A DNA stretch of 58,409 bases from positions 1-58,409 of the forward strand of contig JBHLLP010000021.1 of NCBI GenBank assembly GCA_048885525.1. Direction: 5' to 3'. Position 1 is the first letter of the stretch. Each line of letters starts with the position of its first letter. The notes beneath the pieces are model-generated. The model was not told the DNA's origin, searched no databases, and saw only the letters and a program-made list of their open reading frames with translations. A program made the translations under genes and the position numbers. This stretch comes from Candidatus Hermodarchaeota archaeon (GTDB taxonomy: Archaea; Asgardarchaeota; Lokiarchaeia; Sigyniarchaeales; SOKP01). Below, one piece after another: positions 2,885-7,205 of the stretch.

Positions 2885-3375
2885 GAATAATATTAAACAC
2901 CTGCTATGTTATAAGTCTAGTTAAAGAAATAATTCTAGAAAATAGATTAATATAAGTTAGGTATTAAGCGTTAGGCATTAAATTAGATAAACTGAAAAAT
3001 AATATTTGTTAATCATTTCTGCTTTAAAGGAAATAGATATTAGATTCAAAAAATTAAAATTGTGTATACACAGTAAAAACCTGACAGCAAAATTTAATAA
3101 TTTTATATATTAGATAATTTTATAAACCTTATTGTAAGTTATGGTTTTTAAATTCTTAGAATGATGCTTTATTTTTCAATGGTTAATTTTTAATTTCTAA
3201 ACATAAAGGAACTTAAAATTGAATGGTATAAAACGGCTTTTAAGTGTAAGATACGTTTAATTTATTTAACTATAATTAATACAAAGTAGAAAGCTTTAAA
3301 TATAAATCTAACAATAATTATCAAAAATTTAATTATTATATAAATTTAAAAAAATATAAGGAGACGTATAGAATT

Positions 3376-3489
3376 ATGGCAAAAAAGAAAGCACCTAAAA
3401 AGAAGGCTCCCGCTAAAAAAGCAGCTCCTAAAAAGAAGGCTCCCGCTAAAAAAGCAGCTCCTAAAAAGAAGGCTCCCGCTAAAAAATAA
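3376..3489 (+). CDS. 37-aa histone H1-tail-like K/A/P-rich micro-protein (MAKKKAPKKKAPAKKAAPKKKAPAKKAAPKKKAPAKK)
   Basis: Not in ORF track; AAGGAGA RBS at ~3358-3364, ATG 3376, TAA 3487-3489, T-tract at ~3514-3522. Confidence 0.8.
   Translation: MAKKKAPKKKAPAKKAAPKKKAPAKKAAPKKKAPAKK
3394..3486 (+). repeat. 33-bp in-frame tandem repeat (CCTAAAAAGAAGGCTCCCGCTAAAAAAGCAGCT, ~2.8 copies)
   Basis: Exact repeat copies visible, encoding PKKKAPAKKAA. Confidence 0.9.
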
Positions 3490-3683
3490 ATTTAATATAT
3501 TTAAGATTCTACATTTTTTTTTAATTTTATAATATTTCTAATGAGTTTTTACTAAAATTCTAATTCATTCAAACGGTACTTTTTTTCCAATTAAAAGTAC
3601 ATATTTCTATTGAAGTATCATATTTGAAACTATAAATATATTGAATTCATAATTAAAATATCTTAATAAAAAATATATTAATC

Positions 3684-4475
3684 ATGAAGACCACAATTTA
3701 TTTCTTTACGGGAACGGGCAATTCTTTAAAAATTGCTAAGGATCTTGTAGAAAGATTAGAAGATTCGGAACTTGTACCTATAGCAAAGGTTTGGGAAATG
3801 GAGAAAATTGAATCGATGAGCGATAATGTCGGTTTTATTTTTCCACTATATTATTCGGGTTTGCCTAAAATAGTCTATGATTTTTTAATCAAAGTAGATC
3901 TTAGTAAATCTAATTATTTTTTTACTATTATAACCAGTACAGGAGATATTAATGAGCAGCCTATACAACAGTTGGGGAAAATCTTGGAATCGAAATCAAA
4001 AAAACTTAATGCTGGATTTTATATCACAATGCCCAATAATTATATAATTGGATTTAATGCTCATCCAGAAGAAAAACAAAAAGAGTTTTTCGATAAAGCA
4101 ACAAGAGAAGTCGAAAATGTTTTCAAGATTGTAAAAAATGAAAAAAACAACATTACCCAAGACATTCTTGAAAAAGATGTAAGTAGAAGTGAAAAGGTTA
4201 ATCAGACTTTTCGAGAGGAAGTCCATGAAAGCGATAAATCATTCTTAGCTGATGATAATTGTAATAGTTGTGGATTATGTGCGGATGTTTGTCCAGTAAA
4301 TAATATAAAAATTAAAGAAGGTAAACCTCAATGGCAACATAAATGTCAACTGTGTTTGGCATGCATTAATTTTTGCCCCGAGGAAGCTATTCAATTTGAA
4401 AGAAAAACTTTAAACACGGGAAGATATCATCATCCTGAAATTACACTTCAAGAAATAATAAACCAGAAAAAATAG
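3684..4475 (+). CDS. EFR1-family ferredoxin (flavodoxin domain + 2x[4Fe-4S])
   Basis: YFFTGTGNS flavodoxin loop; CNSCGLCADVCP and CQLCLACINFCP; RYHHP C-terminus. Confidence 0.9.
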   Translation: MKTTIYFFTGTGNSLKIAKDLVERLEDSELVPIAKVWEMEKIESMSDNVGFIFPLYYSGLPKIVYDFLIKVDLSKSNYFFTIITSTGDINEQPIQQLGKILESKSKKLNAGFYITMPNNYIIGFNAHPEEKQKEFFDKATREVENVFKIVKNEKNNITQDILEKDVSRSEKVNQTFREEVHESDKSFLADDNCNSCGLCADVCPVNNIKIKEGKPQWQHKCQLCLACINFCPEEAIQFERKTLNTGRYHHPEITLQEIINQKK

Positions 4476-4614: not shown

Positions 4615-4998
4615 ATGATTAAATCAATCTTGGTTTGTGATTCTCAGGGTTATCCGTTCTATTCCAAGAAGTTTGATCCAAATATGGAGGAGATAGATCC
4701 TACGATTTTTAGTGGTTTAATATCAGCTATCGGAGCTATTGGGAAAGAATTATTTAAAGAGGAAATTGCTACTATTTCTTATGGTGAGAAATATGAAATA
4801 ACGATTGTTACGAGAGAACTACTTGGGGATCAAAAGGTTATTTATTTTGTTTTTTTAGTTGAGGGGGTTCCTGATCTTAAATTAATGAAACAACTAAGTA
4901 CCAATATATTTATCGAAACTAAGCATGTGTTAAAAGATCCCTCTGCTGCAAAGTTGGATATTAAGGAAAAGGTAGATCGAATATTGGCAAATATATAA
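4615..4998 (+). CDS. Longin/roadblock-like domain protein
   Basis: ILVCDSQGYPFYSK...IDPTIFSGLISAI pattern typical of Asgard longin-like proteins. Confidence 0.65.
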   Translation: MIKSILVCDSQGYPFYSKKFDPNMEEIDPTIFSGLISAIGAIGKELFKEEIATISYGEKYEITIVTRELLGDQKVIYFVFLVEGVPDLKLMKQLSTNIFIETKHVLKDPSAAKLDIKEKVDRILANI

Positions 4999-5138: not shown

Positions 5139-7205
5139 ATGAAATCTATTAAAAATATTTATAAAAAATTCAAATCAGAGCTCGTCTTATTAACGGTGAT
5201 GTTTTTATTCTTCTTCCAGTTAGTTGGTGATTTAATTGAATCGATTTATGTGTTAGAACTTTTAGGGATGGGAATGGACGAGAAAGTACTTGGTTTATTT
5301 TTTATACTAACACCAGTTATCATGTTAGCGTTTAGACGTAAGATTCCGAATTATTTCTACGAAGCTACAATTGTAGTAACCATAGTTGCACGGCTAATAT
5401 CTCCTTTTTTAAATTCTGCGACTAAAATCATAGTTTCAGGATTAGGTGTCGGATGTTTTATGTTATTTCTTCCTTCAAATTACTCACAAGGAATAAAACA
5501 TAATAGCATAGAAAATGAGGAAAAGCTAAGTCTAAAATTTGGTGCGGGGCTTGCTTCAGCTATTTTACTTTCAATTACTTTTAGAACGCTTAATTCTACA
5601 GCAGATATTTCAACCTATGGAGTATTTCAGATAATTGGATGGGTTCTTGCAATAGTCGTTTTTCTAATTATAATTAATCAGTCTAAAGAAAAACAAAGCG
5701 GTAAATCTAGGAATAATCTTAATGAGAGTTCTCCTATATCTCAAGGAGAAGAGGGTTCAAAAACAAAGCAACGTTTTAAAGGGGTTAAATTACTGTCACT
5801 TGGGCTTTTTAGTGTTTTAACTCTCAATTATTTTGCTTTTACTAGTCCAACTGTTATTTCAAGATGGACGGAAGGAGATTATATAGCAATAACAATTGCT
5901 ATAGCAGTGGTGATTGCAATAACTACGTTCATATTAACATTTAAACCAAACATTCTTAGTAAACTCAATTCACGCATACTTTGGGTATGGAATGGTATAT
6001 TTGTGCTTTCACTAGTTTTAACTATTGCTGTCCATACATTTCCATTTCCTGCTAATCCTACTTCTAATACAGTAATTATAAATCGACCAATCGGTTGGTA
6101 CTATTATATACCATTAGTAATAATGATAGGATTATTACCGATAATTTTTATTGATTTTACGCTTCTAAGTCGAAAACTTATTAATCAAAAACCTAGTCCA
6201 TCAAAGTTGGGAGCTGGTTTCGCAACAGGTGGTCTATTTTTAATGTTGATGTCGCTTATACTTATTTTTACGAACGTTTGGGGCTATGTGGAACCAGTAA
6301 GTAATATATTTCGAAATTTATTTTGGCTTCCTTTCTTACTAGTTGGTTTAGCAATCCCTATTATGGGAAAAGCCATTTTTAAAGAAAGATTATTAGAATT
6401 CAAGTCACTATTTACCAATGTACGGGATAAAAAAATTGTAGCTTCTTTCTTGGTATTATTATTAATAGGAACTAGCGTTTCAGCTTTAGTTTGGGAATTA
6501 CGTCCTAAAATACAAGATACAAGCGGGATAACCTCTATTACTGTAATGTCATATAATATACGACAAGGAGTAGATTTTTGGGGAGATAAAAATTTTGACA
6601 ATCAATTAGCAATAATCAAAGCAGTTAATCCCGATATTATTGGTTTACAAGAATCTGACACTGCAAGAATTTCCTATAATAATATGGATATTACCCGTTA
6701 TTTCGCTACTCATTTGAATTATTATTGTTTTTATGGTCCAAGAACAGTAACTGGAACATTTGGGGCAGCAATTTTATCTCGATATCCAATTTTGAATGCA
6801 AAAACTTTTTTTAGCTATAGTAATGTGGATGAAATTGGTACAACAGAAGTTCAAATCAGAATAGGAGCGGATATTTTTAATATTTATGTAAATCACCCTG
6901 ATGGAAATGCTGATGCCAAAACAGCCCATATGCAAGATTTATTAGATCATATTAGTGGTAAAACTAACGTAATTTCTTTAGGGGATTTCAATTTTAGAAA
7001 TGATACCGTCTATTATAGTAATATAGTGGCAGAGTTACAAGATACGTGGGTAAATGCATCCTCTCGAGGAGTGATTGGTACTTATGATTTAGCGACTCGG
7101 ATAGACTATATTTTTGTATCTCCTACTTTTACAGTATTGGAAACGCAATATATTAATAATTTCGAATCAGATCATCCCGCTGTTTGGACTGAAATTCAAT
7201 TTTAA
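5139..7205 (+). CDS. Polytopic membrane protein with C-terminal EEP (DNase I-like) domain; Cwh43/PGAP2IP-like
   Basis: Many TM helices, then VMSYNI, DIIGLQESDTAR, GAAILSRYPI, LGDFN, RIDYIF, SDHPAV. Confidence 0.8.
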   Translation: MKSIKNIYKKFKSELVLLTVMFLFFFQLVGDLIESIYVLELLGMGMDEKVLGLFFILTPVIMLAFRRKIPNYFYEATIVVTIVARLISPFLNSATKIIVSGLGVGCFMLFLPSNYSQGIKHNSIENEEKLSLKFGAGLASAILLSITFRTLNSTADISTYGVFQIIGWVLAIVVFLIIINQSKEKQSGKSRNNLNESSPISQGEEGSKTKQRFKGVKLLSLGLFSVLTLNYFAFTSPTVISRWTEGDYIAITIAIAVVIAITTFILTFKPNILSKLNSRILWVWNGIFVLSLVLTIAVHTFPFPANPTSNTVIINRPIGWYYYIPLVIMIGLLPIIFIDFTLLSRKLINQKPSPSKLGAGFATGGLFLMLMSLILIFTNVWGYVEPVSNIFRNLFWLPFLLVGLAIPIMGKAIFKERLLEFKSLFTNVRDKKIVASFLVLLLIGTSVSALVWELRPKIQDTSGITSITVMSYNIRQGVDFWGDKNFDNQLAIIKAVNPDIIGLQESDTARISYNNMDITRYFATHLNYYCFYGPRTVTGTFGAAILSRYPILNAKTFFSYSNVDEIGTTEVQIRIGADIFNIYVNHPDGNADAKTAHMQDLLDHISGKTNVISLGDFNFRNDTVYYSNIVAELQDTWVNASSRGVIGTYDLATRIDYIFVSPTFTVLETQYINNFESDHPAVWTEIQF

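Follow-up and report, generated by a model that had tools for sequence, protein, structure and literature searches.

A 58,409-nt window of an Asgard archaeal genome contains a 37-codon micro-gene that, on the sequence evidence, is a real coding gene, under purifying selection at the protein level and equipped with its own conserved signals. The product, rich in lysine, alanine and proline (K/A/P), reiterates the N-terminal tail found on the tailed histone of the same lineage, which strengthens the link to chromatin drawn in the first-pass annotation of this DNA. We favour, with a probability of about 0.5, the reading that the micro-protein is a free-standing, multiplied histone tail that would act as a DNA or chromatin polycation; its transcription, abundance, DNA binding and chromatin role are what we infer from the evidence below. 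What is new here is that the peptide is tied explicitly by sequence to the histone tail of its host, that coding conservation spans the family and that the setting is Asgard; the literature consulted contains no report of a tail-only gene from Asgard or other archaea.

Layout and signals of the micro-gene

The window, that is, the whole stretch analysed, corresponds to contig 21 in a genome of 3.58 Mb and 87 contigs, with a completeness of 99.3%. The features of the locus are as follows.

3376..3489, + strand: micro-gene ORF, ATG at 3376 to the end of TAA at 3489 (sequence, ORF list)
3381-3486, + strand: tandem repeat with a 33-bp unit, present in 3.2 copies at 95% matches (Tandem Repeats Finder, score 189)
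3287..3304, + strand: putative BRE-like TAGAAAGC, then TATA-like TTTAAATATA (from the sequence; presumed promoter)
3327..3375, + strand: predicted 5' leader, about 50 nt, A/T-rich and unstructured, its start at 3327 estimated from the typical spacing of TATA box and start in archaea
3358..3368, + strand: ribosome-binding site AAGGAGACGTA, its AGGAG complementary to the 16S 3' end ...CACCUCCU
3514..3522, + strand: T9 tract 24 nt past the stop, putative archaeal-type oligo-T terminator (from the sequence)

The product, MAKKKAPKKKAPAKKAAPKKKAPAKKAAPKKKAPAKK, comprises 37 residues (18 Lys, 12 Ala, 6 Pro, 1 Met and no Asp or Glu) with a net charge of about +18, and is laid out as M-A-KKKAP-(KKKAPAKKAAP)x2-KKKAPAKK, the KKKAPAKKAAP units being the coding content of the 33-bp repeat. 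The ORF is single copy and has a GC content of 41%, against 29.4% for the genome. The first-pass annotation had described a stand-alone 37-residue ORF made of M, K, A and P, confirmed here at exactly 3376-3489, together with a TATA-like element, a ribosome-binding site, a T-tract and about 490 bp of upstream space, all of which were found, the box and the T-run in relatives as well. The three KKKAPAKK-coding units are 100% identical; the variable length that the annotation had anticipated from the repeats is borne out by products of 28-37 residues between species. Logan contigs of four DNA runs, searched over 2900-4000, break inside the 33-bp repeat at 3423/3457.

The TATA-like element begins 81 nt 5' of the ATG, and the promoter-like word TAGAAAnCTTTAAA, with only four occurrences genome-wide, is specific to this gene. 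The 16S rRNA of this genome ends in ...CACCTCCT; the GGAG ends 12 nt before the ATG, compared with a genome-wide spacing peak of 8-11 nt, and the extended Shine-Dalgarno (SD) word AAGGAGACGT, present five times in the genome, precedes a start codon only at the micro-gene. A bacterial-type terminator scan returned no hairpin, as expected for an archaeal oligo-T terminator. On the upstream side, the nearest ORF (57 aa) ends at 2884, leaving a 491-bp spacer whose sole frame is a 35-aa frame opened by TTG. On the downstream side, there is no coding frame of at least 25 aa before 3684, the next start codon lies 194 nt past the stop with the putative terminator in between, and the minus strand has no ORF of at least 25 aa over 3114-3683. 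No Rfam family and no tRNA was found anywhere in the window.

Conservation among relatives

Orthologues of the micro-gene amount to 37 intact ORFs of 28-37 aa in 36 of the 135 genomes of one Promethearchaeota (Loki-type) family. Carriers make up 27/54 genomes of the genus and 7/42, 1/10 and 1/6 genomes of three sister genera. The figure of 36/135 is a lower bound because both detectors, one profile and one exact 8-residue motif, are narrow. Specifically, the profile, built from nine sequences, matched 23/54 genus genomes and 20 of 301 genomes sampled across the phylum, and it missed a second subtype of the micro-protein with a 6-residue period (MAKKKAPAKKKAPAKKKAP..., 28-35 aa) in four genus members. 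Searched at the protein level, 40 relatives yielded intact homologues for 11 of the 24 further genus genomes and for none of the 16 genomes from three other families of the order. The exact degenerate KKKAPAKK pattern is present in 59/135 family genomes, with 0 for the reversed control. Outside the family, the profile matched at four places, within open frames of 219-295 aa, and the three of these that can be read as ORFs are lysine-rich tails of 213-288-aa proteins. Since only some half of the genus genomes and roughly a quarter of those in the family show it, the micro-gene is either dispensable or often missed. The carrier in the sister genus counted as 1/6 (L104, genome G346) has a locus that, together with its flanks, is identical to the one in a genus member (L038, genome G065) and may be a binning artefact or reflect cross-binning between MAGs.

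Among 13 distinct orthologues of 114 nt, mean pS is 0.52 and mean pN 0.042 (pN/pS 0.08), and the variable columns fall at codon positions 1/2/3 in the proportion 4/8/29. Not a single Asp or Glu is found among the 1268 residues of the 37 ORFs, whose charges range from +14 to +19. Of the 37 family copies, 35 have a TTTA[AT]A box within -100..-60, placed at exactly -81 in 21, a run of at least six T follows within 70 nt of the stop in 36/37, and the SD AAGGAGACGTA is nearly invariant within the genus. Start, frame, promoter-like box, SD and T-tract are kept across four genera. The leader, by contrast, is conserved in length and not in sequence, with 0 conserved base pairs among 12 aligned leaders. 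In a set that includes one ORF of the other subtype, repeat units from a single gene resemble one another slightly more (0.89) than do units from different genes at matching positions (0.85), and three identical units occur only in this genome, units elsewhere differing at synonymous sites; this pattern points to ongoing slippage or conversion.

Some copies depart from the common layout. In one genome (L049, G061), two K/A/P micro-genes, of 38/37 aa and 31 aa, stand in tandem about 210 nt apart, each with its own TATA-like box; no other two-copy genome was seen. In three species of the genus (L006, L009 and L044), a premature TAA removes six residues to give 31-32 aa, and the six codons that once closed the gene, with their original stop, can still be read downstream. 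In another genome (L094, G001), the SD word AAGGAGACGTA is changed to ATGGAGACGTA, creating an in-frame upstream ATG and a possible 40-aa form, METYYSMAKKK....

The host histone tail and related K/A/P modules

The genome has four histone-fold genes, three tailless and one tailed. The tailed histone, of 77 aa, begins MAKKKAPAKKSEGYIAKAPIRRLMKK... (MAKKKAPAKKSEGYIAKAP...) and follows the plan MAKKKAPAKK-SEG-fold. When the whole 3.58 Mb is translated in six frames, MAKKKAP is found twice, opening the micro-gene and opening this histone, and KKKAPAKK, KKAPAKK and KAPAKK are confined to the micro-gene (three times) and the tailed histone (once). Over their first 21 nt, these two genes differ at a single base. 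The tie extends through the lineage: the tailed histone was matched in 45/54 genus genomes (E below 1e-20), 28 of the 30 genus histone loci that were read start with MAKKKAP, and the full 10-residue tail MAKKKAPAKK opens many of the micro-proteins. A bridge form exists in a sister genus, where a 94-aa tailed histone (L103:285-566, - strand, genome G374) has its tail expanded to MAKKKAPAKKAAPAKKKAPAKKKGES, about 27 residues with KKKAPAKK units as in the micro-protein. In a sister family of the order, one single-contig genome of 6.0 Mb encodes two histones (L116 and L117) with 25-40-residue tails that open with MAKKKAPAKKKKAAPKKAA and MAKKKAAAKKKAPAKKK.

The upstream regions of the two genes are unalike, with SD GTGGAGGAATAA at the histones versus AAGGAGACGTA at the micro-gene and differing promoter contexts, which indicates that any duplication is old or that the likeness is convergent. 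The match to the histone tail could thus reflect descent or, the sequence being of low complexity, convergence under a shared constraint. A promoter common to the micro-gene and the histone genes was rejected on account of the same differences in SD and upstream context. Also rejected was a replacement of the micro-gene by long histone tails, as the three species of the genus with 81-aa tailed histones carry the micro-gene too.

Across 400 genomes of the phylum, the KKKAPAKK pattern matched 80, of which 21 are among the 265 outside the family. Among the matches listed, 11 places from 10 of these outside genomes were read; none is a stand-alone ORF, and all lie in longer proteins: two tailed histones, three Alba proteins with an N-terminal K/A/P tail, two Rpb3/11-type Fe-S RNA polymerase subunits with a C-terminal tail, two GTP_EFTU (aIF2-gamma-like) proteins with an N-terminal tail, a 191-aa protein without Pfam match and a repeat protein of more than 229 aa. 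Fused to histone, Alba, RNA polymerase subunits and aIF2-gamma-like proteins, the module is thus an appendage of Asgard proteins that handle DNA or RNA, with the micro-gene as its free form. The micro-gene also illustrates how, in this phylum, K/A/P modules pass among the genes for histones, Alba, RNA polymerase and translation factors.

The Alba proteins, from another Asgard family (L114:456-860, + strand; L118; L119), have an acidic-then-K/A/P N-terminal extension with KKKAPAKK units; L114 was assigned to Alba by PF01918 (E 4e-13), and L118 and L119 by eye from the alignment. The C-terminal tails of the Rpb3/11-type Fe-S subunits are found at L115:444-935 (- strand) and L123, and the N-terminal tails of the GTP_EFTU, aIF2-gamma-like proteins at L121:3-608 (- strand) and L122. 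Another Asgard family has an Rpb5-type subunit (L053:24-854, - strand; L056) with a K/A/P/T C-terminal tail of about 75 residues and an N-terminal restriction-endonuclease-like domain, in a eukaryote-like two-domain Rpb5 layout. In the sister genera, two AAA_5-type ATPases (L107:495-1022, + strand; L125:10-600, + strand) start with MAKKKAPAKK, and the same residues head a 49-aa protein of no known family (L113:169-315, - strand).

Candidate functions and neighbourhood

Searches with the micro-protein placed it in no established family. No Pfam family matched at E<=1, including Linker_histone, PF00808 and HC2, and the PDB sequence search had no match at E<=10; NCBIfam returned only Rv3852_fam (NF050153), at E 0.77 and 10 bits against a cut-off of 100. 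Of 1.84 billion representatives searched by profile, a single one matched at E<=0.001, namely a 230-aa Hsp20-like protein bearing a K/A/P tail, while the family of the micro-protein was not recovered; the clusters of 30-38 aa in the ESM Atlas, at a score of 0.96 with low recognition value, are a lead only. The label of linker-histone tail given by the first-pass annotation is apt for the basic K/A/P composition, which resembles the H1 C-terminal domain in composition only; membership in H1 itself is rejected, given the lack of a winged-helix globular domain and of any match to the Linker_histone profile or the rest of Pfam. The suggested relevance to the origin of H1 is likewise not upheld: since stand-alone copies were found in only one Loki-type family (36/135 genomes), they have no bearing on eukaryotic H1 ancestry. 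Bacterial H1-like Hc2 (PF07382) was rejected in the absence of an HC2 match for the micro-protein at E<=1, the longer Asgard K/A/P tails reaching 21-22 bits against this profile (cut-off 40). Membership in the Asgard histones of HLoB type was rejected because the histone fold PF00808 is absent, although the motif of the tailed histones, MAKKKAP(A)KK, is present. An antimicrobial or secreted peptide was rejected, there being no hydrophobic residue and no signal sequence.

The closest likeness is to the tails of Asgard histones of HLoB/HMpB type, which are Lys-rich and disordered and start with MAKKKAP(A)KK like the micro-protein; the latter differs in being a separate gene in which the tail unit is multiplied 3-5 times with no fold attached. 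In bacteria, the AlgP/PhaF C-terminal domain, Chlamydia Hc2, the actinobacterial HupB tail and Rv3852 share its composition, short tandem repeats and variation in repeat number, but are usually longer than 100 aa or attached to a folded domain. Protamines and sperm nuclear basic proteins are polycations of about 30 residues that neutralise DNA charge; unlike the micro-protein, they are Arg-rich and belong to the eukaryotic germ line, and there is no sequence relation. Among eukaryotes, the TgH1-like protein of Toxoplasma (91 aa) and the kinetoplastid H1-like proteins are, as reported, stand-alone, K/A/P-rich and basic without a winged helix, as is the micro-protein, and they are chromatin-associated and affect compaction (PMC9769792). 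They differ from it in being eukaryotic, two to three times longer and endowed with Ser/Thr modification sites. By composition, the micro-protein belongs with the K/A/P polycations of bacteria, kinetoplastids and Toxoplasma, and by analogy it may work alike; it is predicted that it probably coats DNA.

Under the favoured reading of a free-standing, multiplied histone tail, the 37-residue product (36 without the initiator Met) would be intrinsically disordered, having no acidic or hydrophobic residue, and prolines every 5-6 residues and the lack of a hydrophobic core would leave it unable to fold alone. The H1 C-terminal domain binds polyanions electrostatically. For K/A/P repeat peptides of AlgP, such binding is reported as well (PMC9239181). 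The micro-protein would bind the DNA backbone in the same electrostatic manner, each molecule neutralising the phosphates of an estimated 9 bp or so, and it would act in trans, like a histone tail or an H1 C-terminal domain, as a charge neutraliser and compactor of DNA bound by histones or Alba. Most likely, it would have arisen from the host histone tail, or under the same constraint, and then been amplified through repeat slippage. DNA and chromatin are ranked first as its target because the motif is otherwise found only on a histone in this genome, which has four histones and three Alba proteins for DNA packaging. This reading is consistent with reports that the tailed histones of Asgard archaea, whose tails are Lys-rich, occur in abundance, co-localise with DNA and undergo acetylation and deacetylation (bioRxiv 10.64898/2026.07.02.735847), that K/A/P repeat peptides of AlgP bind DNA (PMC9239181) and that the Toxoplasma H1-like protein, devoid of a globular domain, compacts chromatin (PMC9769792). 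Asgard tails are also described as lysine-rich, without homology to eukaryotic tails and liable to arise easily from AT-rich DNA (PMC10919886).

A more elaborate scenario appears distinctly unlikely: this Asgard family would have detached its histone tail as a separately transcribed poly-tail peptide, acting in trans on chromatin of mostly tailless histones (three of four here) and tuned by lysine acetyltransferases and sirtuins, as are the attached tails of cultured Loki archaea, to serve as a diffusible compaction factor. If true, the detached tail would amount to a prokaryotic equivalent, in function, of the linker-histone C-terminal domain that evolved independently of it. More generally, a multiplied tail-only gene suggests that tail function, be it charge neutralisation or service as an enzyme substrate, may be supplied in trans. 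Such possibilities matter in that Asgard chromatin is now studied as the closest prokaryotic model of how nucleosome regulation originated, work to which lysine-rich histone tails are central. The micro-gene also exposes a blind spot, as low-complexity genes of fewer than 40 codons easily escape gene callers, similarity searches and tryptic proteomics.

Other targets of the polycation have to be weighed against DNA. Ranked second, and in our judgement unlikely, is a general RNA- or RNP-binding polycation, that is, a ribosome- or RNP-associated micro-protein rather than a chromatin component. Very small, very basic proteins are often ribosomal, and RNA is a possible target because the motif sits on a translation factor (the GTP_EFTU, aIF2-gamma-like domain) and on Alba, a binder of RNA as well as DNA. 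The TgH1-like protein, moreover, is reported to be nucleolar and to associate with ribosomal proteins (PMC9769792). However, the micro-gene lies outside any ribosomal-protein neighbourhood, its product matches no Pfam or NCBIfam ribosomal family and no PDB chain, the only other motif-bearing gene in the genome encodes a histone, and carriage by about a quarter of the family would be unusual for a ribosomal component; specifically, an eL41-like ribosomal micro-protein was rejected for want of a profile match and of ribosomal operon context. That the peptide is instead a soluble mimic of the histone tail, serving lysine acetyltransferases or sirtuins as substrate, competitor or buffer rather than acting on DNA, we regard as improbable. 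Its N terminus and the histone tail are identical, three SIR2-family genes are present in the genome, and tail peptides of cultured Loki archaea are reported to be substrates in vitro of LoHAT2 for acetylation and of LoSIR2b for deacetylation (bioRxiv 10.64898/2026.07.02.735847), but the argument is purely inferential, SIR2 genes are near-universal in control genomes and a +18 peptide would bind nucleic acid anyway. A role as substrate of, or competitor for, tail enzymes is possible alongside the other roles and not exclusive of them. We give still less credence to a binder of polyphosphate or another polyanion that would organise granules in the manner of the AlgP K/A/P domain: AlgP's domain of KPAA repeats, similar in composition, is reported to associate with and space granules (PMC9239181), whereas the micro-protein has no folded partner domain, and the Asgard fusion partners of the motif handle DNA and RNA.

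Two further explanations would deny the peptide a function as a diffusible protein, and both fare poorly. A T-tract follows the ORF, as it would if the latter were a regulatory leader peptide or uORF, namely a Lys/Pro/Ala-sensing attenuator of the downstream flavodoxin/4Fe-4S gene. This is very improbable, in that the gene directly downstream belongs to at least five different families or orientations among 12 loci, which argues against a leader peptide for any one gene; the 194 nt to the next start codon contain the putative terminator, purifying selection is strong over the whole peptide, and the folding, which covered the leader, gave 0 conserved pairs. Least credible of all is a non-functional origin, whether by chance in A-rich repeat DNA or by decay of a histone gene to a fragment. 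The low complexity, the repeats, the patchy distribution and the premature stops of some copies would fit such an origin, but it is disfavoured by the pN/pS of 0.08 with variation concentrated at third codon positions, the signals and frame conserved across four genera, the GC content of 41% in a 29% GC genome and the lack of a histone-fold remnant downstream.

Against the chromatin reading itself stands the neighbourhood of the micro-gene, which consists of redox, membrane and unknown proteins and includes no chromatin genes. Synteny is loose: of the syntenic arrangement that the first-pass annotation had proposed to look for, the recurrence of a handful of gene families nearby was found, and constancy of the gene immediately downstream was not. 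Two neighbours in the window deserve mention. The first, at 4615-4998 (+ strand), encodes a 127-aa protein that is 78-88% identical over 23 Promethearchaeota MAG loci, often lies within 4 kb of the micro-gene and has no Pfam or NCBIfam match. The second, at 5139-7205 (+ strand), encodes a multi-pass membrane protein of 688 aa that carries an endonuclease/exonuclease/phosphatase domain at its C terminus; the protein's best Pfam match is the C-terminal nuclease-like domain of eukaryotic PGAP2IP (E 1.4e-18).
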